From Anthoceros angustus (Eukaryota > Plantae > Anthocerotophyta): a stretch of DNA of 64,000 nt. A program made the position numbers and the translations under genes. Numbering within the stretch: the stretch's first letter is position 1; every line of letters starts with the position of its first letter. Shown piece after piece: positions 8,995-55,669 of the stretch. The notes beneath the pieces are model-generated. The model was not told where the DNA came from, ran no database searches, and was given only the letters and a program-made list of their open reading frames with translations. Location of the stretch: positions 2,009,478 through 2,073,477 of the forward strand of contig MU008158.1 of the NCBI GenBank assembly GCA_010909165.1. Direction: 5' to 3'.

Positions 8995-9024
8995 CCCTAC
9001 TAGAAAAGGGCACCCTATGTTACA
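8995..9024 (+). repeat. Left 30-bp TIR of the CCCTA element
   Basis: Exact reverse complement of 38545-38574; followed by TGTTACA/TGTTGCA subterminal motifs. Confidence 0.96.
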
Positions 9025-12000
9025 GTGGATGTTGCAATTTTTTGTTACACTTCCACATTGCAACATGTTTTGGAGGGTTGGTATTAAGTTTGTTAGTTCC
9101 CCTCGTGCTGCCCATCTTAACACGAACTCGACACTATCTCTTCCCCTCCCCTTCGGTACACCCCTCTCTCACAAGCATTGTTAATAATTTCCCACTTCCA
9201 ACTTCCGATGGTTTGATGGCTTGGTGTTAAGTTGGTCCATTCTTTCTCTTCCTTCTCCCACCATCCTAACACAATGCTTGGTCTCTCACTTCATGTACCA
9301 CTTCAATATTGCAACACTTTATGGTGGCTTGGTGTTCAAGGTGTCCTTTTCTTATCCACTTCTCACCCCATCTTAACACAATACTTGGTCTCTCTCTCCC
9401 CTCACCCTCCTATTTATTGCCCCCTTATCACACCCTTTTATACTCTTTCACTTCTCCTCCTCCTTCATGACCGTGAGAAGGACCTCCCCTATCACGCCCA
9501 TTTTATACTCTTCCACTATTCCTCTTTCAACTTGCTTGTTACAATGACCTCTCGCCTGGGCTGTCTTCCTTCCTTTTACCTCCTTTGCATATACTCAATA
9601 TACATATATATGTTTGTAGGCTTCAAGACATAAGTATGTGTACGCTTTATATGTACACATCCATCCGTTATACTTCTATTATATTAGTGTATTTACATGC
9701 CTCTTTGTATGTATGTATACGCACGTATATAGGCATCAAGACTTGTTTATATAATAATATATGTGCTAACCCTTACGTCCTCTCATACCTTACATATCTA
9801 AGTGTTTGATTTTATTGACAATTTAAATCAAATTTTTGGACACTTCAATCGTCCTCTATCCCTTGACCTTTGTTTCCACCGATGCAATACGAACTCCACG
9901 TGATATGGGCATATGCGTCGGGCGTGCACCAACATGTGCCTCGAATCAAGCGACGCGACGTCACTTGGTGACTCTTGGACCAACACCAATGGTTTCGTGG
10001 TTCCTCCACATCTTCCTACACCTATCCGACCTCTATAACCACTTTCACACATTCCCTATGTCAATGCGGCTACAAGGTGGGCACCAATTCCCTCTTGTTT
10101 GTTGCTAATTGACCATCACCGGTCCACCCATGCAGGCGACTCCATCGTCCGGGAGAAACATCTCGACCATTTACATTCCCCTCCACAAACGGCCCCTACC
10201 CATAGACCGTACCAACCATTCCTATGTCACTTGCGCCTACACCCCTTCGCCACCGTCCGACCTGACTCCTCTTGGCTTCAACACCCGTTGTCTTTGCTTG
10301 ACCCTCTTAAAGACCTCCTCGTTTCCCCGTGTGGTCCACCTTCCGTGGCCGGCATTCGACCCACTAGCCTCAATGGCTAGCCCTTCACTCCCGGCCCCAT
10401 AGGCTGCCAAATCACCACTTCCACAATTACGAGACAAGCGAATAGCATTCAATCTCTCGATGGTTGCCACCCTACTCACGCTTTTGACACGGATCGTGAT
10501 ACGCCTGTGGCACCGCCATCACACCTCCGGATCCCCACCATCCACGTTGCCTCCGGCATCACTTGACGTGACGCCCCTGCTTGGCACCTTCCCTCCATCT
10601 TCCTTCTCTCCACCGGGTTGCCTTCACGACCGGCCTTCACCTTCCACCGTTTTCCTTCCCTTCTTCCTGCAGTGCACACGCATCACTTACTCACGTCCTA
10701 TAGCGAAACCTACATATCACAACCAAGCATTCCATTAACCGTCAACGACTATTTTACCACTCGATTCTAAGATGTCTCCAATCCATGCCTTGCTGCCCAC
10801 TTCAACTCATCCGTGGTTGCGCTCCTCCCGTTGGACATACCGTTTCGAACTCCTTTGCTCCGGACCAAAGGGACCATGCTCGTGCTTGCAATTCTTGCTT
10901 ACGCGGCCTGTGGTGTTGGCCACACACCCCATGCTCAGAACGTCACCACGGCTTGCGCACTTTTCTCCATGCCTTCGTGCATTAGGCGGATGCAACCATT
11001 TTGCATCCTTCCCTTCTCCCTCCACGAATGCGCTTGCCGCACCTTCTTGCCCACATTGTGGTTCCTTGTCCGCGATGCACCGCAAACCGCCACAATATCC
11101 TCGCTCTATACTTGCAAACTCATACTCTACCTTCCTCACCGTCTTTCGCAAACTGTCGTGGCTCGACCATGGCACCATCACTCCATTTTGCACACACTAG
11201 CTCCAACACCGGTGGAAGGCCTTCCTCACTCGTCCTTCCTCTGGACGACTCTTCATCCTCCTCCTCATTCTCTATCCACCCTCCATCGCATAACCGGCTC
11301 ACGCCCATGTACACGCCACCACGCCCATGTAGCCCGCACAACACTATGACATCGTCTAATGGCTTACCGCCGTGCTCACAATTCTCCAATTTCATGTGCT
11401 GGCAATGTAGTCGGCATGTCTTCCTCGACCTCGATCCGCCATCTCCACATCTTCCTCCTCGCTCCGCCTCCCCATCCTCGCTACTGGTGTCCTCCTCACC
11501 GCCTCCTCACCATCATAGGCATGCGCCCTTGGCCCTCCTCCGCAACCGCCCACCAGCCACTGCCCACTCCCACCGCAGGAGTCTCCTCCTCCAAAGGCTC
11601 CCTCCCGCCACGTTGTTGGGGTTGTCCGCCGCCACCGGCGTAAGGTCCACAAAACGTATGCCATCTCTCTGCAGCTGTGGTCACCCTCTTGTGCACCACC
11701 ACCATGCTCCTCAAGTTGGACACACCCTCAAGCTCCGACTAAGGCCAATGTCCCTCCGGGATGTCGCGCCTGGCGATCCCTCCTCCGACTTTGGAATCTC
11801 TCCTGGAAGCAAAGAAGCGTTAGCTCCCCACCTGCTGGAGACACCCACTCCACTTCCGGCCACGAGCATCGCCGCCTCTTGCAGACTCCACTGTATGAAG
11901 GTTCTCCTCCGGCACCTCCACCTCTCTCGCCGCTCGCCCACGCCATGGGCATCCACCCTCCACTTGGAATCGGCTTTCCACGACCGCGCCCACCTCACTT

Positions 12001-22913: not shown

Positions 22914-23155
22914 TGTAAGGGTATTAAAGCCCAATGTACTTAGACTAATACACTTAGTCTAAGTTAGGTGCTCATATCATTAGTTTAGCTTAAGCTAATC
23001 ACTAGGAAGCTTCTTGTGCTCCTTCCTAGGAGCTTCTTGTGGAGCTTCCTAGGAGTTCTTGAGGGTATAACCTCCAAGCCTCATCTCAATGTGAGAGAGC
23101 TCTTTGCCTCCTCCTCTCCTCCTTCCACCAAAGATGGCTGCCCCACCATCCTTCA
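22914..23155 (+). repeat. 5' LTR of copia element 2
   Basis: TGTAAGGGTATTAAAGCCC...CCTTCA, near-identical to 27898-28151. Confidence 0.95.
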
Positions 23156-23157
23156 AC

Positions 23158-23170
23158 CGGTATCGAGCCA
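23158..23170 (+). other. Primer binding site (tRNA-iMet type, degenerate)
   Basis: CGGTATCGAGCC two bases after the LTR versus consensus TGGTATCAGAGC. Confidence 0.8.
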
Positions 23171-23249
23171 TGGTTTGGTGTTGTGATGCTAGAATTTTCT
23201 AGTCGCAGGGCCGAAGCAGCTCGTGGAATTGCGGGTGATCCAGATCGCG

Positions 23250-24060
23250 GCGAGGGGCCGCGAGCGCCGCAGAGCCGCGAGCGGATGAGGCCGTGAGCGA
23301 GGCAAGACCGCGAGCACGGGCCGCGGACACGTGCGGCCGCGGGCGCGGGAGCGCGCAGCCGCGGGCGCGCGCGACGGCGCTGCCGCCAGCCGCCGGACGC
23401 GGCGGCCAGGGCCGCGGGGCGGAGCGCGCGCGCAGCGCGCTGGGCGGAGGCGCCGCCCGGCCGCGGGCCGCGCCTGGCGCGGGCGCGCGCCGCGGGCCGC
23501 CGCGGGCGCGCGCGCGGGCAGGCGCCTGGGCCAGCGCGGCGGCGCGCAGCGCTGGCGGCCAGGGCGCCGCGGGCGCTGGCGGCGCGGCGCCCGCAGGGCG
23601 CGCGGCGCGCGCCGCGGGCGCGCGCCGCGGTGGCGGGCGCAGCCGCTGGGCCTGCAGGCGCGCGCCGGCAGCGCGGGCGCGTGCCTGGGCCTGCAGGGCG
23701 CGGGCGCCTGGCCGCGCGGCGCGGGCGCCCGCAGGCCAGCGCGGGCGCGCTGGGCGCGGGCGCGCAGGGCGCGGCGCGCCCGGGCGCGGCGCTGGGGCGG
23801 GCGCCGCAGGCGCCGCAGGGCGCGGGCGCCGCAGGGCCCGCAGGCGCGGGCGCGCGCGGCGCGGGCCGCGGCGCGCAGTGGCGCGGGCGCGGCGGCGCGC
23901 AGGCGCGGGCGCCGCCGCGCGGGTGCGATCGCGGCCGCGGGCGTGGCCGTGGTCAGGCGCGGGCGCGGAGTGGCCGGCGGGTGGCTGCGGCGGGCGCTGG
24001 CGTCGCAAGTGCGCCGCGTGACGGGCGTCGACGGGCGCAGACGTAATGAGCCAACGCCGC
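23250..24060. repeat. Extremely GC-rich low-complexity tract in the copia 5' leader
   Basis: Iterated GGGCGCG/GCGCGG/GCAGG units with very few A/T, between the PBS and gag. Confidence 0.9.
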
Positions 24061-24189
24061 GGTGAGCGTAAAATTCGCAACGATTCGGATTACTCGAATA
24101 AATAACGCAAATACAGACCGCATTTGATCGCTTTCTTTGACTTTTCTAACAAGGCGAGTTGAGTGTTTAATCAGACGATTTTTGAGTCA

Positions 24190-27100
24190 TGATGTCTTCA
24201 TGCCGAAAACGTCATGTTCAATATCGAGAAGTTAGATGGTACTAACTTCCCGCTCGGAAAGAACAAGTGTATAATGTTCTAGTGCGTAAAAGCGATCAAG
24301 CCCATAAAGTTGTTAGGCGTCAAACCGATAGTATGACTGTGATGAGTGGCGGACTGGATGAGCTTGCTAGATCTACTATCATGCTAACATTGTCAAAAGC
24401 AGTACTTCAATGTGAAAGATAAGACCACGAGTTACGGACGGCGTAAGTGTGACTGTATGAGAAGCAAAGTGCGGCTTCGTGTATTGGTTGAAACAAATGG
24501 TGGACTTGAAGATGAAGGAAGGGACGAGGATGTCCGATCATCCGAATGATTTCAATACCATTTTCAGCGCTCTCATCTCAAGGTATCACGTTCCCAGTTC
24601 GTGAGAGCTATGTTTCTGGTCACATTACGAGAGTTGGGATACCTTTCGCATGCCTCCGAGTAATCGCCTCGCTAGTGGTCTTACCATTGTAAATGTAGTA
24701 GCCTGTTAACCGAGGAGGTGAACAGAAAACATGGAACCTTCCAAAGGTTCCAAAGTGCCCTCATAGTGAGAGGGAGGTCCACCGCGGGGGAAGCAACCGG
24801 ATGTAAGCTTCTCTCGTAGCAAATCTCGTAGTCGTAATAAGAATGTGGAGTGTCACTATTGTCACAAAGGGTCACTTAAAAAGAGAGTGCGAAGTTCAAA
24901 AGGACCAAGGAAAAGAGAAGAAGCGGACGACAAGAAGGCGACTTGTCACGTTGGAAGAGTTAAACTCGTTGAGGACGGAGATGTCCTTATCTCTTCTTAC
25001 TTGAATGCCGCATAATTAATACCGTGGATAGTCATTTATTCCGCAATTGGATAATTGACTCGGTGCATCTTTCCATGTTACTCCGCATAGAGAGTGGTTT
25101 AACACGTATGATGCTACAAGGAAAGGATGCGTTAGGCTTGGAAATAACTATGCATGATCGCAGCGAGGTGATGTGCAACTCAAGTTTGACAACGGATCTT
25201 CATTCATAAGGACGTTAGGCATGTTCAAGTTGACAAAGAGCATGATTAGCGCAGATGCTTGGATGATCGGTTACCACTGGTTTGGGGATCACTCTTGGAA
25301 GATCTCCAAAGGTTCTCTTGTGTTAGCTCGTGGATCAAGTGTGGCACTTTGTACTCACTTCGTGTAAACATCCAAAGATCATGTGATCGTGACAGAGCCC
25401 AAATGTTTCCTTGTGGCATTGCCTAGGACATATGTCTCGAAGGGAATGAAGGTTTTATCTCGCTCGTTATATCCTCGTTAACTTCTCCGATCTCGATGTG
25501 TGAGCACTGCTTATATGGGAAATGACAAAATCATCACATCGAACACGAGGTAAAAGTAGAAGTAAACCTCTTGAGTTGGTTCACGATGTATGTGGACCTA
25601 TGCCTCTGCATCATTAGGCGGTGCCTTATTTTGTCACTTTCATAGATGATTTCTCACGCAAGGTGTGGGTTTATCCTTTGAGGAAAAGGATGAAGTTCGA
25701 CGTTTTAAATTTGTCACCCTTGTAGAGAATCACCGCCACCGATTGAAGTGTCTAAGGAGATAATGGTGGCGAGTATGTTCGAAAGCTTTCGGTCATTCGT
25801 GATTCCAAGGGAATCAAAAGAGAATTGATCGCCAGATACTCCTCCACAAAATGGTGTACGAGGGATGAATGAACCATTCGAGAGGATGTAGTTTGTTGTC
25901 AAACTCGATTGCCTAATGGGTTTTGGGCGTATGTGTTCATCTGCTCATCTTATTAAGATCTCCTAATAAAGTTGATGAGGTGTTCGAGGAGCTATGGTCC
26001 GGAAAGAAACCATCCTACAAGCATCTGCGAGTGTTTCGTGAGGCAGCCATGTTCCAAAAGAGTTTCGGGACAAGTTGGCACCTAAGTCCAAGAAATGTAT
26101 TTTTCTTGGCTATGGTGATTCCGTGAGATGGGATACCGCTTTGTGGGATCCAGAGGCTAGAAAGGTTGTACTAACGACGTGTTCTTCAATGAGAACAAGA
26201 TGCAGGAAGCCTACTCCAACCGTGGAGGTGCGAAGGGTGATCTTCCAAGAAGATGGACATGATCAAGGTGTTGAGTGTGCAGTGAGCATTCCTCCATCGA
26301 GAGATGAACCAAGAGTCGAACAAGCTCCTATAGAGGTGCCTGTAGGGTCGCAGATTACACGACCTCCGGCGGTATGATCCATCTCGGATTATGTTACGCC
26401 GACAGATTGGAACCCTCTTCTTACAAGAGGCTCACAACGAGTAACAAAGAAGTGGGAGAAGGCCATGCGAAATGAATTGCATAAGAACCAAACTTGGGAG
26501 TTGGTTCCGTTTAAGGATAAGAACTACCGCAAATGGGTGTACAAGATGAAGGTCATACCGCTTGATGGCAAACCAAAGTACAAGGCCGATGGTTGCTAAG
26601 GGTTTCAAGCAACAACGTGCATTGACTTTGATGAGATTTTCTCACCGAGTCAAAATGACAACTTTGCGATGTGTTCTTGCTTTGGTTGCGATGATATGGA
26701 ACTTGCAGATGGATGTCAAGACGGCATTCTTGCATGGTGACCTTCAAGAGGACGTCTACATGCAGAACCAAGGTTTTGTTGAGAAGGGCAAAGAGCATCC
26801 GTGTGCGGAGGAAGAGCCTTTATGGTTTGAAACAGCACCCGAGAGTGGTATCACAAGTTCCACTCATTTATGCTTTCTCAAGGCTACAAACGTAGCGATG
26901 AGGATCATTGCCTCTATACGAAGCAAGCTAAGGATCAAAGCTTGCTCATTTTGATCCTCTATGTGGATGATATGCTAATTCGCAAGATCGATGAGATTTC
27001 ATTGAAGTCAAAGTTGAATGCTCACTTTGAAATGAGACTTGGGAGAGGCGAGCCATATACTTGGCATGCGATTCGTGAACATAAGCGCGTCGCTTTATTT

Positions 27101-27855
27101 GTCTCATTTTAATACATTAAGGTGCTTCAACGCTTCAACATGGAGAAGGGAAGCCATTGGGTACCCATTGCCTCCATATGTGAAACTTTCAAGCGCGGAT
27201 TGCCCAAGCTCGAGGAGGACAAAGTGAAATGGAGAAGGTCCCATACTCATCACCGTAGGGAGTTTGATGTATGCAATGATTGCTACACGCCCCGACATTG
27301 CCTTTGCGGGGGAGTGGTTAGTGTTTATGTCAAACCCGCAAGAAGCATTGGGAGGCGAAAAAGGAGTTATGAGGTATCCGAATGGTACAAAAGCTTTGTG
27401 CATATGTTTTGGTAGTGAAGATGCATGTGTTGGGGGCACATGTCGATTATGCGGTGGGATATGGACAAAAGGAGGTCCACATCAGTTATGTCTTCACGCA
27501 CGGAGGGGCGTCATGGCGATCTCTTGGTCGTGCATTACGCTATCTACCACGAGGCCGAGTATGTTGCAAAGAATCGAGGCTTGCAAGGAAGCCATATGGC
27601 TTGCTCGTTTAGTGGGAGACTTGGGGATCAAGGTTGAGCCTGTTGCATTGTGATAGCAGTGCTATCCAATTGGCAAAGAATCCGTGTTTCATGCGAAGAC
27701 TAAACATGTGGATGTGAAGTATCACTTCATTCGAGAGGTGTTGGACGACAAGAGGGTACAACTTGTCAAGGTTCACACACCCGAACCGCAGATATTCTTA
27801 CCAAGGGACTCTACAGCAATTTGCACAAGCTCTGGACATCGATGGGCATGAGATA
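24190..27855 (+). pseudogene. copia gag-pol polyprotein (frameshifted)
   Basis: NIEKLDGTNF (gag), ECHYCHK.GH (Zn knuckle), WIIDS (PR), LWH.LGHMS and DVCGP (INT), [12 protein letters not shown] and YVDDML (RT), KTKHVDVKYHFIRE (RH). Confidence 0.95.
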
Positions 27856-27897
27856 GTCCATTCTCCACGAAGGTAAATTGGCCTTTAAGTGGGAGGT

Positions 27898-28151
27898 TGT
27901 AAGGGTATTAAAGCCCAATGTACTTAGACTAATACACTTAGTCTAAGTTAGGTGTCGATTATATCATTAGTTTAGCTTAAGCTAATCACTAGGAAGCTTC
28001 TTGTGCTCCTTCCTAGGAGCTTCTTGTGGAGCTTCCTAGGAGCCCTATTGGAGGGTATAAATACCTCCAAGCCTCATCTCAAAGTGAGAGAGCTACTCTT
28101 GCCTCCTCCTCTCTCCTCCTTCCACCAAAGATGTCGCCCCACGATCCTTCA
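27898..28151 (+). repeat. 3' LTR of copia element 2, preceded by the PPT AAGTGGGAGG
   Basis: Direct repeat of the 5' LTR; includes the TATAAATA box. Confidence 0.95.
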
Positions 28152-28279
28152 AAACCACTCTCTTCATCGGGAACATAATTGGTAATGTAACGGGGGCCTT
28201 CTTCTACTGCAACATACGATTGCAAAGCTAACTACCGTGGTATGGTTTCCAAGCCAAAGTGGGTGTAATAAGGGGCGGT

Positions 28280-28644
28280 CATGGCAATGCAGCGGTAGAA
28301 AGAGGTAGATAAGAACTGAGTGTGATGGTGTGCTGTGTGTGTGGTGGCATGATGAGTGGCATGGGTATGGAAATAGGATGGTGTCGTGGTTATGTGGACC
28401 ATACAAGCGTAATCACAAGCGCAATTACGGCTCGGCGGCGAAGATCTCCCATGTGCGGGTGTGATCACGGCGCTTGAATTCGGGCCGAATTAAGATCGGC
28501 GGTAGGCTACAAAGTGAATCCGTCATTGAGGCGGATTGTTGATGTCCGATTCAATAGAACATGATGCATCCCAAGCATTTTTTAGCACCTTGTGATGCTT
28601 CACCGTGTGTGTGCAGGACAACCATCCCAAGTCAAGAATTTTGC
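28280..28644 (+). repeat. Split direct repeat A1
   Basis: CATGGCA..GGTAGAAAGAGGTAGATAAGAA....CCCAAGTCAAGAATTTTGC recurs at ~36666-37051 and ~37952-38326. Confidence 0.92.
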
Positions 28645-28699
28645 ACATCAACAATCCGGTGAAGCGGTTAGCCACTCGAAGGGTCCGAGAGGGGCCCGA

Positions 28700-30000
28700 G
28701 ATTCGACGGAAGACGGAGAAGAGGAAGTCAATCGGTGACCCCAAGCCGGTGAACATACGATAAGTCCATGGTATCGCCGAAAACACCTTGGATTATTCAC
28801 GCTTTATGCGTGCGATCCATTCGTGGAGTGGGCCGATGGTGGAGCCGGAAGTATGATTTTGGCAACGCTCGGAGTGAGGTGATTGTCGGGCATGGCGGAT
28901 GGACGGGAAGGAACCCGACACCAACTTTGACTAATGCCTTACATAGTCTCGGGGGAGGGATTGATAGTGATGGTGTTACTACGTGGTGGATTTAACGAAA
29001 GCACACCGACAACGGCTTACAATCCGGGCATGCCTTCTCCGTAGGACAAGTGGTCGCTTTGAGGAGTCACACTATCGATCCATTGACTTTGAAGAAAATC
29101 GTGGTGGCGCCGGGATGGATTATGAACCGCCAAAAATGATGTGTTCACAGACACGGTAGTATGTCTCTTGCTGACTTTGAAGAGAAGTTCGGATGGGCGA
29201 TTGATGAGATGGTGCTCAAATACAAGTCCGAGTTCACACCGGAGATGGCACTCGGAAAGATGAGCACGCTTTCTAGGGTGAAGCTTTAACTGCTATCGTG
29301 ATCGCAAAGAAAAGATACCGCAGATGCACACATGTCGCGCGAATGAAGGCAAGGAAAGGCTCCAAGGTCGATGATGAAGAACCAGGATCATCGGGTTCAT
29401 CGCAATCCGAGGTCATCACTTATTTGGTGGACGAGATGTTCGTCAAGTTTGGTGAGATGTTCCCAGATCTTCCATTGAGAAAATCCAAGAGTTGTCAAAG
29501 TTTGTGATCGAATGAGCCTCTAAGATCCGTGATATCTACGGTTGAGGCGGTGAAAGACACCAAGGTGAAGACCATGAGGAGGCAACAAGAATATACATTG
29601 CACAGAAGACAGAGGAGGGTGATCGCCAACTTTCTCGCATATGCTACATGGATTATGAGTTGGAGCAGCGTAGATGGCCGAAAGAGTTATGAAGGAGATG
29701 TCACCAATGCTCGGGAGGAGCACAATGTGATCGAGGTCACACGACAACATTGAAGCGGAAGTCACATTATCGCGAGCAGTGTGAACGCCAACGCAGAGAG
29801 TCGCCATCAAAGGATCAAGTGGCTCATAGCTACCGTAAGCTTCAAGACATCCATAAAGTGTTTGTGCAAGGGGCCGCATAAGGCGTATGAATGTGAGCAT
29901 CGTGTTGGTGGGTCAAAGGAGAAAGAGGCGTGCAGGGCATGTGGTAAAACCGGACATACGGCTTCTGGCAAGCCCATCCCGAACTCAAACCCAAGGGCCT
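28700..30000 (+). pseudogene. gag-like ORF of the gypsy-type element
   Basis: Zn-knuckle-like CRACGKTGH at ~29930-29960, upstream of pol. Confidence 0.55.
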
Positions 30001-31249
30001 AGGAGACCGAGCAATGGACAAGCGAATCGCGAGCTACACTCGGAAAGTTAATCGCTTAGTGAGGTGCAGCCGCAAGAGCGCTGAGCGTGAGCATAAACAA
30101 GGACTCCGGAAACCTATGACTGGACGAAGATGTGTTTGCGTTGATGACGGAAAGGTCAAGGCACCAAAGTGGGAAGCATTGATTTCGGCAAGGGTGTAAA
30201 AGTGAAGGCCGATGGGGATAGGAATCGTTGAGAATGCCCAAGTCAGATCCAGACGAGGACGACGCCACACATCGAGATGAGGTTGTTCCTGCAGATTCAT
30301 TGGAAAAAGCCATGGATGTACCGGTAAGTTTGCGGGACACGGGATCGGACACAACCGCTCAAGCAAGCAATGCGGGCATGGATTAAGAAGGAAGCCACCG
30401 AGTTGAACATGGTGTCCGGGCTTGTCACCACGTGGTGATCACCTAAAGCCGCTAGGGAAAGGTGGAATAGCGTTAGTGAAGAATCGCAACGAGAAGTCAC
30501 CGCCAATGGCTTTGCACCGGAGTGTGTTAGTAGACAGTGCCGATCCGGTGTTGCTTGGGGCAGGTGCAAGAAGCAATCGAATGGAGACAAGCGGGGTGTG
30601 AGGTACGGATCACCACATCCGCAGCACCAAAGAATGTGTGATGGGGATGACTCGCGATCCGATTCGGATAGAGTATGAACAGCAGATGCGTGTGGTGGAA
30701 GTACATTGTTTGGTTTCGATGCACGAAACTATGATGTGTTATTGGGTGCGATGCTACGACGGCCAGAATGGGGTGGATCCGTGCACTCTGGCGTTTATAG
30801 GCCAAAGTGGCGGATGGAGATTTCACACATGTCAATTCCTCCGGACATGAGGAGGCATGGTGAAAGATCAAGAAGTATGTGGCTCACGGCGGCATGAAAG
30901 TGTTCACCGAGGGAGGTGTGGGAAGAGACAAGACTGCACGACACGAGGTGTCGAAGAAAGCACACATCGAATGATGTGCGCGTGAGTCAGACTCCCACCC
31001 GTAGAGGAGGCTTTGGAAAGAGAGCGATTCGGCGAGCGGATGCAAATATGGCGAATCACCGCAATTGTCCGGAAGAAGCCCGCCATGAAAATAGGAAACT
31101 GGGGTTACAAATCGATAACCAAGTGATTCGGTGGCGAGTGCAACAGGGCATCCATCTCATGGAGTTGTGTTCGGATTAGTAGTGGATGGAGTGTGCTGCG
31201 ATGGGGATTCGTAAAGTATACGTGTAGAAATTGATGAGAAGACTCGGCG

Positions 31250-34200
31250 GGCCAAATCCGGGATTATCGGCTACAAAAATGCATCCGAGCTTCGAGTGTG
31301 GAAGCCATAAGAGGGTGCGACCAAAGCCACGATGTGATGCTGGTGGGAAAAGCACGCTGTGCAATGAGATGCCCGGTTGACATGATGATTGCGGTGGATG
31401 GGAGTGCAAGACCTTTTCCAAGGCCGGACGTGGTCAAGGCAACGGAGTGCATCGGGCGGGGAAGTGATACGGATCGAGAGAAGTGCAGCGATGCAATCCG
31501 GCATGTTGGTACGGAGAATGTTTGAGCTTTGACAAACGGGTCATGTGAGAGAAAAATTATGAAAAGGTCGAGTCGGGCGAGGAGTTCATCATTGACGGTG
31601 CAAACAGGTCGATGCTCATCGCCTCCGCAGCTCGAAACATTGCAGTGTGGAAACACTCAGCAAAGATCAGTTTAACCACACCAACTAAGCGGAACTGGAT
31701 GGGATCCTTGAGGAGGCGGATCGCAGTGAGCGTGGATGGATAGGTTGCCACACTATCCTCACAATATTGTGGGAGAACCCAGAGAGCTTGGCCCACAGGT
31801 CAAGACGGCTCACCATATGCCTTTCGCCGAGGTGGTGCGGGCATGGTATTGAACATGAATGGTGAGGAGATGGGGAACCCACGATTGTAGAGAACGAGCG
31901 ATGGGTTTTGACGATGGCGCACCTATACGCGAGGTGTGTCAAGCTTTCGATGCAAACCTGGGACAAGCATTTGACGACTGTGTTCAATGGTTGGTGAGTG
32001 TGGAATAGCCACACAAATGCAAGTCGATAGACAGGGAAGGTCGTGCATGATGATGGGTGACGGGAAGAGTTACAAATCAGACAAGTACCCAAATCTGAAT
32101 AGTGCGAAGTATCATCGCGAGTGGAAAGCACGAGTGGGCATTCAACTCATGTATGGCAAATATGTGAGGACTTGAATATCGAGGATCAATGCAGGATCCG
32201 GAGATCTTTGGAGAAGAATCGGGTACCTTCGCTCACCGGCAAGAGCGGGACGTTATGAGCGCATCAAGTTCAAAATCATCACTACTACCAATGAGCCGGC
32301 TCAAGAACAAGTTGAGCCCAGCAGAGTGGGACATTGTGGATAAACGGTGTAGGGAACTTGCACTGGATTAATTCGGAAATCAAGTTCAAAGATGTCTGCT
32401 ACCACGGTCCTTCCGCTAAAGAAGACAAACGGCGAATGGAAGGACGGATGTGTGGAGATTATCGACGAATGAGGTAACGCCTATGGAGCGATATCCCATG
32501 CCTACCCTGATGAAATCTTTGACGCGATTGGGCCAAGTATTTTCTGACGGATTTCGCTCGATTCAATCAAATTGTCATCAAGAAGAAGACAAGTGTAAAA
32601 CGGCTTTCGGGGCAAAGAAGTTTGTGGGAATGGGAGATGCCTTTTGGGCTGAAAACGCTTCCATCTACTTTGAGGGTGGCGACTTGGAGTTGCAAGGATT
32701 ACCATTCGTGAGGTGTTACATTGATGACATGGTGTTAGCGCCTGAGGAACACATTCAACACCGAAACGTTGCCGCAGAGATCGCCTGTCAAGGCACATCC
32801 AAAGAAGTGTAAGTTTGCTTACAAGGAGATAGAATACTCACAAGATTGTGCCAGAGGCGTCCGCTGGCGAAGGTGCATCAATCTTATGCCAAGACCAAGG
32901 GACGAGCTGCGTTGAGAGCATTCTTGGGACTCGTCAACTATTATCGCCGATTCATCGAACATGAGCGACTTGCAAGGTATTGTATGATCCGATGAAAAAG
33001 GGGCACAGGCTGGGAGCAAAAAACATGAACATGCTTGGCGGAGTTAAAGGATCAATTAAAGGCCCATGCTCAAACGCGGCTGATTTTGAAAAACCGTTCA
33101 CTCAGATACCGACCGGAGTGCAATCGGAATCGAGCCGACTTGCAGTGGATCGGGAAGGAAAAGAAAGAGTGATTGATGCGTAGCAGTAGGTAACAATTGC
33201 GGAAGCCAATTATTCGTCGTATGAGGGTGAATGTTTGGGCGTGTGGGCGCTTCTACATTTAATTTATTTGTTCGGCAGAGCTTCCAACTCGAATCGATCA
33301 CCAGCCGCTGTAATCGTTAATGACGAACATGAAGTTGAGTGGCAAGCTCGCAAGGTGGGCGTCAGCCGAATATGATATGCACATAGTGCACGGCAAAGTA
33401 CATCACAATGCGGATGGACTTAGGGAACCCAAGATTGATGACAAAGATGGACTGCGCGCGGGCAGATTTTGATCATGCTCATGCCAAGCATGTATATGGC
33501 TCTCATGGCCACAAGTCGTGAAGGAAGAAAACAACTCAATGAGGGAGGACGAGACATATGGAAATATGGGCATGCTATTCGCTATTGAAGGAAGGGAAGT
33601 AAGTTGGACTAGATGCCGCATTCAAAAGCTGCGACGGGTCATGAGGTATACCGGAGGGATGGCAAATTGTTAGTGATGATCGTGGAGTGTAAAATGGTCC
33701 CTCCCATAGAGGAACGGAACAGATAGTGAGTAAAGTGCACAAGACACTTGGGCACTTTGTAAAAAAGGACGCATCATATGTCAAGAGTGCCTATTTTTGG
33801 TCCGGAATGTACTCACCGAGCGAGTGGTGTCGAGATGTGCTTGTGATGCAAAGCAAGGTTCAACCAGGATGTGGTGTTGCATTGCCGCCTATTCGGTCAT
33901 TTTCTTTCGATGGTCCGTTGACCTCATGCCGAGCTACCATTGACCAAGCAAGGCAACAAGCATTGTATGCTCATGATAGAACACTTCTCAAGTGGGTGGA
34001 ATTGGCATTCCTTCCACCGAACTTCCCACCACAAGACGAGCTTTCTAAGGCGTTTTGAGCGATATGGAAGCATGCGGAGGTGCCGGCGATCAAGGAAACG
34101 AAGAGGAGAGTTCCAAGCGTTGTTGGATCGGAGTTTGATAGATCACGCACGCCACGGATCATCCTCGTGCGATGGTTTAGCGTAAAGGCCGGTGCAAACT

Positions 34201-34860
34201 TTCAAGGATTCACTTCGCACGCAAAATCGAGCCTAATTGTTGGGATGAGTTGCTACTACGCTGCCGGCTGGGATCGCTGTGCAGCAGGCAACTTCACCTT
34301 ACATCATGTTTGGTGAATGTCGCCCAACATAGTGGCGACATATTCCAAACCGTGGACACACAGATGTGGATGAGTGTTGCTCGAGTTACGAAACCGGGCC
34401 AAGTTGTTACAACGAGTGATACCCATGGCGATGGACAATCCGCCATCGCACGAGATCAATTGAGGTATGCATTCACACGAGGAGGATCATGGAAGCCAAA
34501 GAAAGTTCGGTGGGTGATTTCGTGTATCTTCAACATCGCCCTTCCGCACTTTGGACGTAAACACGGACGGTTGATTTTGAGAGTGGTGAACGCGTTGGTG
34601 AGCAAGGGGTCATCGAGTTGGAAGGGGCAAGATGGGCGCCGATGCAAGGAGCACATGCGACATCCGCCCTGCCACTTGCCGAATCTTGATACGCATACAA
34701 CCACAAGCATGGAAGCCACTGTTGATGCCGTGCGAACACCGTGGTCAAATCACGACCTGAACGTTGTGTGACCAGGTGCAACCAAGGACATCATGTCTTT
34801 TGTCTTCGACCGCTGAAAGCGATCCGGAAGGAGAATGGTTTTGTCACAAATGCACGACGG
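31250..34860 (+). pseudogene. gypsy pol: protease region-RT-RNase H-integrase-PHD finger (frameshifted)
   Basis: RMCGDYR, RYPMP, EEDKCKTAF, MPFGLK, FVRCYIDD (32717-32728); DFEKPF, AEANYSSYEGECL, DHQPL, KLARW, HNADGL; VHKTLGHF..YFWSGM; WSVDL..MIEHF.KWVE, DQG, DGLA*R; C..C..CD.CNQGHHVFCL..PEGEWFCHKC (34731-34853). Confidence 0.93.
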
Positions 34861-34999
34861 AAAAGTTAGGGGAAAGAAGCGGGGGTAAACGCGACTCACG
34901 GTGTGGGCGTGAAGAGAGTCACTAAAGGGAAGGTCTAGAAACCCTACTTGCCTTATCGATATGGTTGTGTGAGACGACGTCTGGTTGGCGCGCAAGGGA

Positions 35000-36597
35000 A
35001 GTAAAGGTGTGGACGGAGGATTGGCAAAGGAGGATTCTAATAGATGGAGGATTCAGCGATCCATTGGAGAAGGCGAAATTCTTGGAGAACAGTGTGAGTG
35101 CATCGACCTGCGGTGCGGAAGGTGAAGGGGTCACAGTGCATGTGGAGAGAAAGCTAATGCGGTGACCGCCGTGGTGCGAGAAGCAAGGAAGGCGGCTCGA
35201 TGGACATCAACAACGAGTTGTTGCGGTGAAGGAAAGGCGATGACGATGGAACATCAGTGCGAATCGAGTCGTAATAAAGGCGTAGAAGTTGCAGTCGTAG
35301 ATAGGGATAAGAGGCAAAGTGACAAAAGTGAAAAGGCGGTGATCACAAGAATTGGGGTGAAGAACAAGCGCAAGGTGGTCATGGCATCAAGTGTCCGGAT
35401 GTGAGCACGAGAGAGGGTGCATGGTATGTTATGTAGACGGCAAGTGACAAGTGGCGTGACGATACATGTAAGACCAAGTGACATTCGATCGTAATCGCCA
35501 CCTTGTGTTGACTAACAAGCAAGACACTCGCTTTGCAAGGCCGTTGCAACATAGGTAGTCTGTGAATCAAGTTCATATGGTTGTTTGACCAACACTAACA
35601 ACACCCGCTTTCCAAATTCGAGAGCATCAAAGAGGGGTTCTTGGGGACAACACGTGGTTGACATGGATATGGAAGCGGACCACACTTGCAAATCATGCTT
35701 CCGGAGAATGAGCACAAGTGTTCCGCAATTTCAGACATGGGAAGACAAGTGGAAAACACCGTTGGTAAGGAAGTATCACCGGTAAACCCGAACGACCGAG
35801 ACATTTCGAGTTGCAAGCATTTTTGTATATGGAATCACACCATGAGGGCTGCAACATAGAGAGTTTTCCTTATGATCATAGAGATCTTTTGAGTCGGGTG
35901 AAGGGGCATGAACAGCAAAGCTTCGTGGACCGCCATCGTGAAGGGGCCTTTCAAAATCGGAACATCACCTGCTCATGCATCGTGTTTGATCACCGCCCAT
36001 CAAGGGTTCTTAATGTACAGCACAAGGAAAACCACCGACCCACGGTCCGAAAGTTTGGCTAAGTCACTTGCAGAGAAAAGGCGGTCGCCATCGCACCCAC
36101 GAGCTTTCTGTGGTGTTTGCTTACGCACGTGAGTGTTGGAATGGGATGAAGCCACCGAATCTTGGTATCTTGAACGACAATGTGGGTGATTATCCGAGGC
36201 AGTGTATCGAAAAGATTATGTAAATGGTTTGAATGGGTGGCAACGCCTAGGGTGAAGACCGAACTAGATAGCGATGAAGAAGAAGAACTCATGGCGCGGC
36301 ATCGAGCGAAAGAACGGGCAATTGGGCAAAGCACAAGTTGATGAGTATTTCGATCCGGAAGAGCGACGGTGGTCAGTATTAGCCAGGAGAATGGATCACG
36401 ATAAACCGCCGGAACCACAACTAAGGGATGGCATGTTCAAGGTTTTACCGACGATTCTACGGCATTTGAGAGTGCCAAAGTGGTGCTTACAACAACGCCC
36501 GCCATACGAAGCCCAACTTTGTGGGGCCATTTGTAAACGCATGACCGGAGGTGGTGATGACGCATGTGGCCCAAGGTTACGAGTTGATAGCAAGTAG
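35000..36597 (+). pseudogene. Additional ORF, putative HUH (Rep-type) endonuclease
   Basis: One frame reads FESIKEGFLGTTRG*HGYGSGPHLQIML (PHLQ at 35680-35691), like Rep motif II, then SCKHFCIWNHTMRAA; the catalytic YxxK is not cleanly readable; stop codon lies inside B1. Confidence 0.5.
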
Positions 36598-37185
36598 TTA
36601 AAAGACTTTTGTTTTGTGGATTTTGATAGGATGGCATGCCGCCATGTCCGCTATGCCGCGACCGCCATGGCACGCAGTGGTAGAAAGAGGTAGATAAGAA
36701 CTGGTGTGATGGTGTGCGTGTGCTATGTGTGTGGTGGCATGATGAGTGGCATGGGTATGGAAATAGGATGGTGTCGTGTTATGGACCATACAAGGCGTAA
36801 TACGGCCAAGCGCATCACGGCTGGCTGGCGAAGATCTCCGACATGTGCGGTGTGATCACGGCCGAATTGGGGCCAAGAATTAAGATCGGCGGCGGTGTAG
36901 GCTACAAAGTCCAATCCGTCATTGAGGGCGGATTGTTGATGTCTCGATTCAATAGAACAAATGATGTATCCCAAGCATCTTTTGAAAGCACCGTGTGATG
37001 CTTCAAATGTGGTGTGTGCAGAGGACAACCATCCCAAGTCAAGAATTTTGCCATTTGTAAACGCAGTGAAACGAGATGGTGATGACGCACGTGGCCCAAG
37101 GGTATGAGTTGATAAAGTAGTTAAAAGACTTTTGTTTTGCATTTTGATAGATGGCATGTTTCGCCATGTCCGCTTATGCATGCGA
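36526..37185 (+). repeat. B1-A2-B2 block of split direct repeats
   Basis: GCCATTTGTAAACGCA...GGTGATGACGCA.GTGGCCCAAGG...AAAAGACTTTTGTTTTG...CCATGTCCGCT occurs on both sides of A2. Confidence 0.92.
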
Positions 37186-38544
37186 CGTGCGCAGTTGGTA
37201 GTTACATGACCCCAAAATTGCAACATGAGTGTTACATCCTGGGTCCAAATCTTAACATAAAGTGTAACATAGGGTGCCCTTTTCTAGTAGGGAAGGTATT
37301 CTGTTTATTGTCGCCACGAATCTCTTCAAAACTTTGCCGCTTTGTGCTCGCCATTTGTGTTTCGCCATCGCCGGGTACCCACGAGCTTTCTGAGTGTTTG
37401 CTTACGCCGCAGAGTGTTGGAATGGGATGAAGCCACTCAATCTTGGTATCTTGACGACAATGTGGGTGATTATCCGAGGCACGGTGTATCGAAAACAGAT
37501 TATGTAAATGGTTTGAATGGTGTGGCGCCTAGGGTGAAGGCGAACTAGATAGCGATGAAGAAGAAGAACTCATGGCGCGGCATCGAGCGAAAGAGCAACG
37601 CAGTTGGGCAAAGCACAAGTTGATGAGTATTTCGATCCGGAAGAGCGGCGTGTGGCTGCGTTATTAGCCACGGGGAGAATGGATCACGATAAACCGTCGG
37701 AACCACAACTAAGGGATGGCATGTTCAAGGTTTTACCGGATTCTACGGCATTTGAGAGTGCCAAAGTGGTGCTTTCACAACATGACGCCTACGAAGCCCA
37801 ACTTTGGCGGGGCCATTTAGCAGTGAAAGCAGGTGGTGATGACGCATGTGGCCCAAGGTTACGAGTTGATAGCAAGTAGTTGAAAGACTTTTGTTTTGTG
37901 GATTTTGATAGGATGGCATGCGCCATGTCCGCTATCTGCCGTGGCGCGTGCCATGGCATGTATGATGGTAGAAAGAGGTAGATAAGAATAAGGTGATGGT
38001 GTGTGTGTGCTATGTGTGTGGTGGCATGATGAGTGGCATGGGTATGGAAATAGGATGGTGTCGTGGTTATGTGGACCATACAAGCGGAATACTGGTCAAG
38101 CGCAATTAAGGCTCGGCGAAGATCTCCGACATGTGCGGTGTGATCACGGCGCGGGCAAGATAATTAAGATCGGCGGCGGTGTAGGCTACAAAGTCCAATC
38201 CGTCATTGAGGGCGGATTGTTGATGTCGATTCAATAGAACAGCGAGACGGATCCCAAGCACTTTTCGAGCACCTTGTGATGCTTGGTGGTGTGTCAGAGG
38301 ACAACCATCCCAAGTCGGAATTTTGCCATTTGTAAGCAGTGACGGAGATGGTGATGACGCATGTGGCCCAAGGGTATGAGTTGATAGCAAGTAGTTAAAA
38401 GACTTTTTGTTTTGCAGATTTTGATAGGATGGCATGCTGCCATGTCCGCTATGCGGCCGTGGCGCGACAGGCGCAATAAGTGTTACATGACCCCAAAATT
38501 GCAACATGAGTGTTACATCCAGGGGTCCAAATCTTAACATAAAG

Positions 38545-38574
38545 TGTAACATAGGGTGCCCTTTTCTAGTAGGG
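38545..38574 (-). repeat. Right 30-bp TIR of the CCCTA element
   Basis: TGTAACATAGGGTGCCCTTTTCTAGTAGGG followed by the TSD AAG. Confidence 0.96.
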
Positions 38575-39626
38575 AAGGTATTCCTGTTTATTGTCGCTAC
38601 GAAATCTCTTCAAAACTTTGCCAGTTTGTGTTTCTGCCATTTGTACATACTCAACAAACTTGTCATATGTCTGGTGTTTCCCATGTAGAAAATATAAGGT
38701 GTAATAGTGGCTCCATTCATCCTGAAAGGTTAGAAAATAGATAGCACCGCCAAATGAACTGGTAGACATAGGTCCACATAGATCAGAATGTACCACTTCG
38801 AGCAGGCCAGTGCTTTGGTGGGTTCAGGATCATTGTAAGGTTTCTGAGCCACCTTGCCTACTTGACAGTTCTCACAGAAGATGTGGTTAGTTACTTTAAA
38901 CATTAGTGCATCTTTGTAAAGTTTTGGCTTACCAACCATCTGTTGTATGTAGGTGATACTGGGGTGACAAAGACGACAGTGCCATAGCAGGGTCTTGTCA
39001 ACTTCTGGCCGTGCATCAATAACATAATTGCGAGCTGCAGAGGGGAGAGCCTCGAAGCGATACAGGTCATTATAAACTACTCCTGATGCTAGTAGTTGAG
39101 AATTATCGTTGGCTGGGGTAACCATCCACCCAGTAGGTGTGAACAACACTTATAAGTCGTGGTCAGAAATGAGCTTGCGTATTGATAGCAAATTCTTTGT
39201 CATGCAGGGTACATGAAGCACATTCTGAAGTTTGATATGTTGGCCGCCTTGCAAGGGGTAACACGACCTCACCAATACCCAAAATGGCCAAACCACTGTC
39301 ATCCCCCAGTAGCACAAATTGACTAGTTGAGATGGCAATGTAATTAGAAAACTTCTCTCTCAATTGGCAGATGTGGTTGATTGCTCCTGAATCAAGGAAC
39401 CACATGTTGCTGTCAGCTTGTGTAAGTGAAAGACACACCGCCAATATTGTTGGTTTTCCTGCTGATGTGCTAAACATGCTAATATTTGAAGGGGCTGAAT
39501 ATACGAAGCCGCTTCCAGAAACCTCGGACCAATTTTCTATGTGCTCCACGGTCACAAAAGCGGCTTTTTTCATTCCTCAGGTTTTTGGCCGAGGTTGGTC
39601 AATGGCATACAATATGGTTTTGTCCG
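38575..39626 (-). pseudogene. Ty1/copia element 1, middle piece: half Zn knuckle, protease, GAG-pre-integrase, integrase N-terminus
   Basis: WFLDSGAINHIC; LQNVLHVP.M.KNLLSI; LLWHCRLCHP..CENCQVGK; VHSDLCGPM..YFLTFQDEWS..KRFRSDN. Confidence 0.95.
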
Positions 39627-51157: not shown

Positions 51158-54100
51158 TGCTACAATCACGCCCTGCTTGAACACTAACGCCCTTGACTAT
51201 TCACCAGCCCTCCAATGCCTTGGTGTGCGCCGCCTACCCACCTACGTCATTGCACATACGGTCCAATCAGAAAAGCCGCCAGAACATTGGTGTGGGCCAC
51301 GCCACCATGTCTTTGGTCGAGCGCAACCCTTTTGCGCCGGGTCCATCACGCTCCCGTTCAAGTTGCCACTAGGCAAACCGCTGCGCTGCCGCACACACCG
51401 GCATCGGACATTTGCCGTAGCCTGCACCTCTCCATGAGCCGCTGCCCATCTCTTGCCACTGATGACGCCACCACGCCACGCCGCTTGCTGGTGCGGTTTC
51501 CCACACCCCACTCGCAAGCACGCAAAGACCCATTTCCGCCGCACCTGCTTCGCTTGTGCTCCACCGCCATCGCTACCGCAATGTCTCCTTCGACATTGGC
51601 TTGCAGCAGGCTGTGAGGGTCTATCAATTGCCGCTGCATGCACGTTCTTTGTCTGCAAATGGTGGGTCTCGTAACCAAAGAGGACTGATGCCCCATCGCC
51701 TTCAAACATCGAAGGGTCTTATAGAAAAGTGATTACAAGGGTGGCCCGCCGGGCCGACATCCGGATTAACAATGAATTGCGACAAGGGCTACCGTGTGGA
51801 AGCTCACCGTCCACTGCTACCATCACTTTCGCCCCCATTGCTTCAACCGCAATCACCCCAAGTGCATGCATTGCGGGCACCGATGATCGGCAACACCTCA
51901 TGGGTATACATATTCAAGCGCAGTCCATGCAGCTGACGTAACCAAACCATGGAGTCATGCTCAACGTCATGTCGCATCATCGAGTTCCCTCCTGGTTTCC
52001 ACCATCATCTATTGTGGCCATTTGAGAGCTGGCCATCGACGCGTGGCTTGCTCATGCCGCTACCAACTCGTTGTGGTATCTGACGGGAATGTGCCGGGCT
52101 CCGGCGACCCCGACCAAGGCCGGCTCTTCGACTGAGGAGGCAAACTCGGACGGATGCCGCGAGTCCATGGCATCCTTCGGATGAGCATTGTCACGAGGTT
52201 TTCTATTAAGACACCAACCACCACCACCCCTTCACACGCCAACAAGTGATGAGAATTGGTGTCGTGCGGGGTACGCTAATGGCCATGTACTCGAGCTTGT
52301 CATCAAGGACGCCGACATGTACTCGCGCTTGTTGGTGGAGACGCCGACATCACGATTGGTGCCGCCGACCATGTCCCAAGGTCCGCGCACGCCGACGTGA
52401 TGGGGTTTACGACGAGGAGATATTCTTCAAGGCCGAATATTCCGCCCGCTTAAACCACGCCTGGATTGACACGATGGGTCTACATCCACCACTCGTTTTG
52501 AATCATTCCAAGAATTCGCTGTGGCATCTTCCGCTCAAACACTTCACGCCCGGCGGCGTTTGACGCCTGTGATGGATTTGCAATTGGGTTGCCCAAGAAC
52601 CCCGGGAGATCCGACGCCAGCCTCGATGGCGTGGTCGGCCCCTCACCGATTATGTGTCCTGCTATGTGGAGCCTCACAAAGCGACGGAAGGAGATGCAAG
52701 ATGCCCGCCTCCCGAAGCCCATCGGTCTTGGAATCATGCCCCACTCCTCTCGTCGGTGACTACGTTGTTGCCCAAGCATTCCGCTTAGGGATGTCGATCG
52801 ACCAGGAGTTTTCTTGGAGACACCCTAAGTGGTCGATGCGCTTGTCGAGCCGCCGGCTCATCGACGATGAAGGAATACCATTGGGCCCAACTGCCCCATT
52901 ACGACGGAGGCCCTGTGCTTGTGCGAGGCGAGGACAAGACGAATAGGCCAAGCCGTGGTGGGTTGGTGCCATCACAGTGGGAAGCGCGGTTGCAGCGCTA
53001 AAGAACTCGGTGAATTCATAGTGGACATACTGGGTGAGATGCGAAAGAATGAGAATCAAGAACATGGCGATGGTTGTGGAGGTAGGGACCCAAGCGCTCA
53101 CCTTGATGTTCAACCGCCACCGAGTTTGAGCCGATTTGATATCCGCTGTGGAGCCGTGGAGCCCGCCTTTGGGGAGGAGAGCACGGCGCGCCATCACCGT
53201 GGAGGCGGAGGATTTGGTTTCGCCGAGGGTGAAGCGCGGGTGAAGGAAACGGATGAGGGTGGGATGTTGCACCGCATCTACGGGTGGGAGCCATGCCGCA
53301 ATCGCGGATGTGGCTCGAGAACCGCCGCTCGCCGGCCGCGCGGGAAGGGAAATTGGCTCTTATGAAGAAGTCGGTCGATCGAAATGGGTAGTGGGGTTTG
53401 CTCGTAAATTGCGCGTGCTACAATCACGCCCCGCGTTTGAACACTAACGTCTTGACTATTCACCAGCCCTCCAATGCCTTGGTGCGGTAGCCGCCTACCC
53501 ACCTACGTCATTGCACTGCATCGGGTCCAATCGGTAAGCCGCCAGAACATTGGTGTGTGGGCCCGCCACCATGTCCGCTTTGTCGAGCGCAACCCTTTTG
53601 CGCCTTCGCTCCATCACGCTCCCGTTCAAGTTGCCACTAAACCGGCGGTTCTTGTGCACGCGCATCGGACATTGTCGATCGGGCACCTCGGCATGAGCCG
53701 CTGCCCATCCTTGCCGGTGATGGCGCCACCACGCCACGCCGTTTCAGTGGTGCGTGTTTCGATCACACCCACTCGCAAGCACGCGGCACCCATTTCCGCT
53801 TCGCACCCGTTTCTGCTTGTCGTTCCCACCGCCATCGCGCGCCTTCGCAATGTCTGCTTCGACATTGGCTTGCGCAGGCTGTAGGGTCTATCAATTGCGC
53901 TGTTGCATGCGCATTCTTGTCTTGCAAATGGTGGGTCTCGTAACCAAAGAGGACCACCCATCGCCTTCAAACATCGAAGGTCATTCTTATAAGCGGTGAT
54001 TACAAGGGTGGCCTGCCCGACATGGATTAACAATGAATTGCGACAAGGGCTACCGTGTGGAAGCTTCACGCTCACTTTATTACCATCACTTCGCTTCCCA

Positions 54101-55669
54101 TTGCTTCAATCCGCACTTTAGACCAAGTGCATGCATTGCGGGCACCGTATGATCGGCAACACCTCATGGGTATACATATTCAAGCAGTCCATACGGCAGA
54201 CGTAACCAAACCATGGAGTCATGCTCAACGCCGTACGCATCATCGAGTTCCCTCCCAAGGTTTCCACCATCATCTATTGTGGCCATTTGAGAGGCCATCG
54301 GCGTGGCTTGCTCATGCCCGTTACCAACTCTGTGGTATCGACGGGAATGTGCCGGGCTCCTCGGGCGACCACGACCGGCTCTTGACCGATTGAGGGCAAA
54401 CTCGGGACGGATGCTGCGAGTCCATGGCATCCTTCGGATGAGCATTGCCGAGGTTTTCTATTAAGACACCAACCACCACCACCCCTTCACACGCCAACAA
54501 GATTGGTGTCAAAAGTACGCCCAATGGCCATGTACTCGAGCTTGTCATCGGGGACGACATGTACTCGCGCTTGTTGGTGGAGACGACATCACGATTGGCG
54601 GGCCGCCGACCATGTCCAGAAGGTCGGACGCCGACGTGATGGGGTTTACTGGCGAGGAGATATTCTTCAAGGCCGAATATTCCGCCCGCTTAAACCACGC
54701 CACGCCTGGATTGACGCATTCCGGGTCTACATCACCACTACGGCTCGTTGAATCATTCCAAGAATTCGTTGTGGCATCTTCCGCTCAAACACTTCACGCC
54801 TCGGCGATGTCGGACGACGCCGGATGGATTTGCAATTGGGTTGCCCAAGAACCCCGGGAGATCCAGCTCCTCGATGGCGGTGGTCGCCGGCCCTCACCGA
54901 TTATGTGTCCCGCTATGTGGAGCCTCACAAAGCGACGGAAGGAGATGCAAGATGCCCGCCTCCCAAATGGGTTCCGGTCTTGGAATCATGCCCCACTCCT
55001 CTCGGTGACTACGTTGTTGCCCAAGCATTCCGCTTAGGGATGTCGATCGACTAGGAGTTTTCTTGGAGACACGGTAAGTGGTCGATGCGCTTGTCGAGCC
55101 GCCGGCTCATCGACGATGAAGGAATACCATTGGGCCCAACTGCCCCATTACGACGGAGGCCCTGTGCTTGTGCGAGGCGAGGACAAGACGAATAGGCCAA
55201 GCCGTGGTGGGTTGGTGCCATCACAGTGGGAAGCGCGGTTGCAGCGCTAAAGAACTCGGTGAATTCATAGTGGACATACTGGGTGAGATGCGAAAGAATG
55301 AGAATCAAGAACATGGCGATGGTTGTGGAGGTAGGGACCCAAGCGCTCACCTTGATGTTCAACCGCCACCGAGTTTGAGCCGATTTGATATCCGCTGTGG
55401 AGCCGTGGAGCCCGCCTTTGGGGAGGAGAGCACCGCCATCACCGTGGAGGCGGAGGATTTGGTTTCGCCGAGGGTGAAGCGCGGGTGAAGGAAACGGATG
55501 AGGGTGGGATGTTGCACCGCATCTACGGGTGGGAGCCATGCCGCAATCGCGGATGTGGCTCGAGAACCGCCGCTCGCCGGCCGCGCGGGAAGGGAAATTG
55601 GCTCTTATGAAGAAGTCGGTCGATCGAAATGGGTAGTGGGGTTTGCTCGTAAATTGCGCGTGCTACAAT
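51158..55669. repeat. Tandem duplication of ~2.25 kb: 51158-53415 and 53416-55660
   Basis: 9-bp microhomology TGCTACAAT at 51158, 53416 and 55661; copies are colinear. Confidence 0.93.

Follow-up and report, generated by a model that had tools for sequence, protein, structure and literature searches.

A survey of 172 genomes describes fusions of PHD fingers to retrotransposons as common, as far as its accessible text goes (see also PMC6338049 and PMC9977147). Among the closest described systems are two Gypsy elements. KnitGypsy-Dnmt3 of Klebsormidium nitens is described as a Gypsy whose pol is joined by a C5 methyltransferase and whose repeats follow a DIRS-like A-coding-B-A-B order (de Mendoza et al. 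2018, PMC5890265). Gypsy-7a_cRei of Chlamydomonas reinhardtii, an active element with an integrase and a PHD finger in its Gag-Pol, shows an intergenic bias, and chromatin targeting has already been proposed for it in the accessible text of that study (Craig et al., 10.1101/2022.06.16.496473). Among Ty3/Gypsy elements with a chromodomain, MAGGY is an example (10.1101/2021.11.30.470311); the Phygy elements of REXdb use a tRNA-Trp primer and make 4-bp target duplications (PMC6317226); Replitrons, common in non-seed plants, move as independent DNA transposons and have short direct ends (Craig 2023, PMC10288648), all as stated in the accessible parts of these sources. Both the PHD-Gypsy fusion and the A...B-A-B layout (the latter once, without a mechanism) are already in print. 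In a search of openly readable papers and preprint main texts, no paper was found that joins a PHD finger, split repeats and 4-bp duplications, and none that reports a Gypsy element with an HUH gene.

The element considered here lies in a window of 64,000 nt, the whole stretch of DNA that was analysed, from Anthoceros angustus (GCA_010909165.1, contig MU008158.1, 2,009,478-2,073,477, forward strand). It is a Ty3/Gypsy retrotransposon of ~8.9 kb with split direct repeats in the arrangement A...B-A-B and the order gag-protease-C5 methyltransferase-RT-RNase H-integrase-PHD. Judging from sequence, insertion is probably the work of the element's own DDE integrase, and a PHD finger with a predicted affinity for unmethylated H3K4 likely guides it. 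The features are as follows.

28277..28648, plus strand: repeat A1, left end of the element (346 identities, 11 mismatches and 44 gaps against A2)
28800..30820, plus strand: gag- and protease-like region, weak, in the order of the intact relative L003
31295..32032, plus strand: C5 cytosine methyltransferase-like domain (score 92 against a shuffle maximum of 41, L001/L003 profile)
32288..33428, plus strand: reverse transcriptase (YIDD at 32717) and RNase H (scores 254 and 294 against L003 pol)
33688..34700, plus strand: DDE integrase (HHCC 33738-33844, D33920, D34088, TAA 34183, C-terminal beta domain)
34731..34853, plus strand: C4HC3 PHD finger (7/8 ligands as read, the second being Arg; Gly at His-2)
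34860..36525, plus strand: extra 1.67-kb segment, missing from relatives and likely coding on this strand
36526..36665, plus strand: repeat B1, immediately after a GGGG run at 36523
36666..37051, plus strand: repeat A2, from the repeat comparison with A1
37050..37195, plus strand: repeat B2, right end of the element (its tandem copy ends GCGACA near 38469)

The protease-RT-RNase H-integrase order (protease weak), together with HHCC and D-D-E in the family, is that of Ty3/Gypsy; two full co-linear LTRs are absent, and the A...B-A-B repeats in their place are a variant of the canonical layout. The gag and protease matches to L003 are weak (scores 45 at 29916-30044 and 47 at 30644-30816, obtained without a null run), and the matching methyltransferase stretch of L001 and L003, two unbroken relatives with the whole domain set, hits PF00145. 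A1 begins GGTCATGG and its relatives begin TGTCATG. No primer-binding site was identified 3' of A1; positions 28655-28675 read CCGGTGAAGCGG, possibly such a site under CTG error.

The short-read contigs used for comparison come from sequencing run X1 (share 0.08) and leave 34000-34545 uncovered. One of them joins 28260 to 37200 and represents the empty form of a small high-copy repeat that the element interrupts. This small repeat (28187-28276 and 37196-37292) encloses the Gypsy at a contig depth far above that of the Gypsy; it has an inverted relative at 8995-9040, and it ends CTAGT beside a minus-strand Copia fragment (38600-39500). A full Ty1/Copia element with two LTRs of 91% identity (22914-28190) adjoins the Gypsy on the left. 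At its primer-binding site the window has CCGGTATCGAGC, whereas two CWG triplets stand in the usual Met-tRNA site, which displays the type of error in this DNA. Within it, 850 nt at 23200-24050 (81% GC, GCGC/GGGC words) are probably garbled base calls.

In three-frame translation the retroelements of the window are of plant type and are broken by very frequent frame shifts. The motifs of the integrase-PHD stretch are spread over three frames, with 34 frame breaks (29 deletion-type and 5 insertion-type) and 3 stops in ~1,170 nt, and breaks occur in the window at about one per 35 nt. Related loci, the mostly decayed 80 best of 342, have 0-3 breaks, counts not strictly comparable with the 34 of the window since the alignments of window and relatives used penalties of 10 vs 14. 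CTG/CAG is depleted in the window (observed/expected 0.41-0.47) and CCG/CGG is kept (1.11-1.25), a pattern that the decayed relative L019 lacks. Between duplicated stretches of the window, 52-68% of the differences lie near CWG/CG against a background of 23-35% (93/160, 28/54 and 178/261), an enrichment that is inflated by scoring both copies against a one-copy background. The X1 contigs differ from the window mainly by gaps. Long reads are known to miscall methylated CHG sites. The excess of breaks, the triplet depletion, the clustering at CWG/CG and the gap-type contig differences together indicate that the frame breaks of the window are mostly read errors.

The tandem duplicate 36085-37358 / 37362-38644 (87% identity, 103 gap openings), which covers the 3' end of the element and its flank, shows the same clustering and may therefore have arisen in assembly from noisy reads. 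Two further tandem duplicates, 51158-53424 / 53416-55669 and 4208-5812 / 5811-7223 (78-88% identity, many gaps), are likely of the same type. The noise also shapes the reach of searches. Pfam on raw window frames gave no PHD or rve match and missed RT and PHD alike in this DNA, word-index protein searches with the noisy frames gave no match, and a protein alignment search with window frames found matches only in proteins of 3,732-5,000 residues. IMG/VR yielded no relatives of the element.

A frameshift-aware alignment of 33688-34857 to a profile of 24 relatives scores 784, compared with a mean of 39 and a maximum of 51 for 20 shuffles, and matches 72 of 93 near-invariant columns, with six more at breaks. 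The integrase motifs named in the preliminary description are all present: the HHCC residues (H33738, H33753, C33836, C33842), WSVDL with D at 33920, DQG with D at 34088, and DGLA*R with TAA at 34183-34185 in place of the Glu codon. The PHD finger that it placed after them is borne out by the profile, with seven of eight ligands (C34731, C34767, C34777, H34792, C34801, C34842, C34851) and W34836; the exception is the second ligand, where the codon at 34740 is CGT (Arg) and not Cys. The PHD columns alone score 110, the top of 424 tiles on both strands of the window, with 49 for the best non-overlapping tile. An HMM built from the PHD fingers of relatives matches the reading with X at breaks (E 2e-14). 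In one raw frame PHD fingers are the top two of nine PDB matches, weak ones (E 0.05 and 0.25).

Given that the window is so rich in errors (34 breaks against 0-3), a read error is the likelier account of the TAA at the catalytic Glu; otherwise it reflects the decay of one dead copy, and in either case it is uninformative on the family. The Glu codon falls outside the X1 contigs and a true stop there occurs in one of the 80 best of 342 loci, so the window copy may be dead.

The family tells more. A protein search with one window frame returned 346 proteins (E <= 0.001), and among the matches listed, 27 were scanned, chosen for high rank or for a match in the integrase part. A PHD finger is present in 25 of the 27, in 24 of these behind the integrase zinc-binding domain, and none of the 27 has a Chromo domain; the earlier remark that the PHD takes the place of the chromodomain of plant chromoviruses is therefore right and holds family-wide. 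A quickly built RT-RNase H tree with 46 rows, from which 74 short hits were omitted, places the window in a group of 25 rows (SH-aLRT 99) that includes all 21 PHD-labelled rows; the relatives compared are distant (~51% identity in RT-RH), and the window's own sub-family lies outside the sample. For relative P0007, a predicted structure with a mean pLDDT of 63.5 finds matches in the integrases of foamy virus and Ty3.

Conservation of the D-D-E triad and dN/dS had been proposed as checks, and both favour a working enzyme. D-D-E is intact in 24/24 family proteins. Of 342 stretches confirmed in a metagenome scan, the best 80 were kept as loci; ten of these 80 have neither break nor stop, and HHCC, D-D-E and C4HC3 are complete in all ten. 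The other 70 of the 80 best are decayed. Across the 80, D1 is kept in 77/77 covered loci, D2 in 67/80 and E in 64/80; the losses of D2 and E are mostly G-to-A (N in 11, K in 13), and in decayed loci the predominant losses are D-to-N, E-to-K and C-to-Y, changes of the kind that cytosine deamination produces. The integrase is under purifying selection in the family: dN/dS is 0.03-0.04 overall and 0.02 in the core, with 41 of 45 pairs saturated and four unsaturated. For the PHD, three unsaturated pairs give 0.04-0.14 and the fourth has a dN of 0.

Several features of the relatives vary around this core. The methyltransferase precedes RT in some members and follows RNase H in others. Between the methyltransferase region and RT, L003 (5083-5085) and L001 (4661-4663) each have one in-frame stop, which suggests translational read-through. 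In many longer relatives (P0002, P0005, P0006, P0010, P0011, P0013, P0015, P0018 and others) the polyprotein continues for 200-470 aa beyond the PHD, with DP..G.G and SP(W/F) motifs that resemble, by motif reading, an adenine methyltransferase; some thus carry two methyltransferase-like domains and a PHD, for which the accessible text on EpiLTRs may be compared (10.64898/2026.05.21.726589). P0015 and P0022 have a G-patch domain between methyltransferase and integrase.

The ends of the relatives point to the same enzyme. A DDE integrase characteristically leaves TG...CA ends and a short target duplication. The elements start TGTC and end GACA. Repeat A1 was found in three independent insertions, the only ones in which both ends are available, and all three have a 4-bp target duplication, one mismatched (TTGT/TTGT in L065, ATCC/ATCC in L070, GCAT/ACAT in L019). 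The preliminary description had held that 5-bp duplications beside an intact D-D-E would speak against integration by a Rep; duplications and triad are there, the size being 4 bp and not 5. The B-B repeat is present in 26 of the 57 loci with enough 3' DNA, many of which show the same insertion on different contigs, and is absent within the search span from the other 31. In relatives B1 starts directly after the G-run, the B1/A2 junction is GACA-NN-TGTC or its deaminated form, and B2 ends GACA; the palindrome also occurs in the divergent intact loci L001, L003, L033, L059, L079 and L080. The ends of the window element are too garbled for a target duplication to be read, and its own junctions fit the TGTC/GACA scheme loosely.

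These ends suggest a route. Reverse transcription would yield a B-A-internal-B-A cDNA, which would then be circularised. The integrase would cut the GACA-NN-TGTC palindrome inside one repeat, losing the two spacer bases, and the insertion product would be A-internal-B-A-B. The extra 3' segment would be lineage-specific cargo or a C-terminal extension, dispensable for insertion. Along this route the element ends would fall in the middle of the repeat that reverse transcription produces, and the cutting of an internal palindrome in a circle as the normal route would, if true, widen the known abilities of LTR-element integrases.

The preliminary description also reported a Rep-like ORF, for which it gave no coordinates and which is taken here as 34860-36525, the extra segment that gives the window 1.67 kb more between PHD and B1 than relatives have. 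The segment is likely coding on the plus strand, with long open stretches in its tandem copy, and several distinct X1 contigs lie on it. Among relatives, 64/71 loci have a G-run no more than 700 nt from the PHD, mostly at 44-60 nt, which leaves no room for a gene before the 3' repeat, and no ORF was found there. The segment has no match in the protein collection and no Pfam match on 36 raw-frame tiles, and PDB searches with two of its frames gave zero and two chance matches. Its scores stay below the shuffle maximum on a circovirus-like profile (51 Reps; 34 against 47), a nanovirus/alphasatellite-like profile (14; 38 against 45.5) and a geminivirus-like profile (15; 40 against 45), and 28650-32100 is likewise not above shuffles on the three CRESS Rep profiles. 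Noisy control Reps reach 124-339 within a family (9/9) and 42-129 across families (7/8 above the null maximum). With these profiles, Rep motifs I-III and the SF3 helicase were not found in order, and the sole resemblance is a PHLQ word at ~35680, like motif II. On these three CRESS groups a Rep-like ORF is not confirmed in either stretch, and an HUH gene in the extra segment is unlikely. Two candidate identities were rejected: a nanovirus-like Rep with Walker motifs, read by eye, on the shuffle-level profile scores, and the adenine-methyltransferase-like tail of 15 longer relatives, on a score of 39 against a shuffle maximum of 47.

How the segment relates to insertion can be weighed against this background. 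The element might have captured an HUH (Rep) nuclease in this lineage that inserts or circularises it, leaving the integrase redundant or a scaffold for the PHD. The TAA at the catalytic Glu, the likely coding segment inside the element, multi-copy in run X1, the PHLQ word, and split repeats that are otherwise typical of recombinase-type elements in the accessible text of PMC5890265 would all suit such a capture. It is nevertheless most improbable when the three CRESS Rep profiles give the segment shuffle-level scores and noisy controls score higher, when relatives share the repeats without the ORF and have integrase-type ends, and when most Replitrons examined in the accessible text of PMC10288648 lack a target duplication. 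A variant of it, in which a Replitron-like or new HUH nuclease captured between PHD and 3' repeat closes or nicks the cDNA circle and the PHD-guided integrase inserts, earns just as little credence; if true, it would give a retrotransposon with two joining enzymes. Nesting of an unrelated element or gene fragment in one old, dead copy is a distinctly better candidate, if still a doubtful one. The segment is missing from the 80 best of 342 relatives (best tblastx E 0.21), decayed copies predominate among these, and the window is full of nested elements; on the other hand no terminal repeats flank the segment, no X1 contig joins across it, several distinct contigs cover it, and B1 appears to mark the close of its open frame. 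Insertion by the element's own integrase is favoured by the intact D-D-E, the dN/dS values, the TGTC...GACA ends, the 4-bp duplications and the lack of an ORF in relatives, and the same evidence of triad, selection, ends and space tells against the earlier proposal of two alternative integration enzymes or an integrase kept for a non-catalytic role.

What the PHD may read can be approached through its ligand-flanking residues. The aromatic-cage Trp for H3K4me3 sits two residues before the His ligand. At this position the family has Gly in 21 and Ala in 3 of 24 proteins, never Trp, and 77 of the 78 loci covered there have Gly. The Asp that follows the third Cys is conserved as well, in 21/24 proteins and 75/79 loci. 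The PHD of relative P0012 finds its best PDB matches in ATXR5, WSTF, UHRF1/2, DPF3, KDM5 PHD1 and BAZ2. Methyl-lysine reading requires the Trp cage and reading of the unmodified tail uses conserved Asp residues, according to the accessible parts of PMC3214078 and PMC4291147. The missing cage Trp, the conserved Asp and the PDB matches lead to the prediction that the PHD reads unmethylated H3K4 at sites distant from active promoters.

The chromatin-guided targeting put forward in the preliminary description is a fair and plausible extension of this prediction. Instead of steering insertion, the PHD might act elsewhere, for example in directing the methyltransferase of the element or in nuclear retention. 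A DNMT3-like catalytic domain is frequent in the family, and host DNMT3 enzymes use an H3K4me0 reader. Such a role is rather unlikely, as the PHD keeps its place at the integrase C-terminus (24/24 proteins) while the methyltransferase shifts position, and Gypsy-7a_cRei insertions are, in the accessible text, 2.6-fold enriched in intergenic DNA, an enrichment for which selection could account.

The oddity first flagged, a dead integrase next to a Rep, mostly dissolves. There remains a Gypsy clade, widespread in the green lineage, that has an intact integrase, a PHD predicted for unmethylated H3K4 and often its own DNA methyltransferase, and the interest lies in the permuted ends and the extra 3' segment, not in the stop codon. 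Among known systems, KnitGypsy-Dnmt3 is nearest by description: it shares the C5 methyltransferase in the polyprotein and the A-coding-B-A-B repeats, it differs from the window copy in the extra 1.67-kb 3' segment of the latter, and its accessible text (PMC5890265) makes no mention of a PHD, termini, target duplication or mechanism. Gypsy-7a_cRei is likewise a Gypsy with integrase and PHD finger but, as far as it is described in the accessible text, is 15.4 kb long, has near-normal LTRs and has no methyltransferase listed; that text gives no place for the PHD within the polyprotein. Phygy (REXdb; Neumann et al. 2019, PMC6317226), compared by description only, is a non-chromovirus Gypsy of a non-seed plant with a 4-bp duplication and a length of ~8.6 kb, for which no extra domain is listed and no PHD appears in the main text or five supplement files. 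A PHD finger in the Selgy clade was not borne out by the literature checked. With Replitrons and CRESS-DNA Reps the likeness is limited to the PHLQ word of the 3' segment, the three CRESS groups giving no profile match. DIRS and Ngaro elements use a tyrosine recombinase, without DDE or target duplication, whereas the present family has a DDE integrase and 4-bp duplications and its relatives have no ORF between PHD and B1. Like the chromoviruses, the window family carries a chromatin reader at the integrase C-terminus; where theirs is a chromodomain associated with H3K9me, as described in the accessible sources, here it is a C4HC3 PHD finger with unmethylated H3K4 as its predicted ligand.
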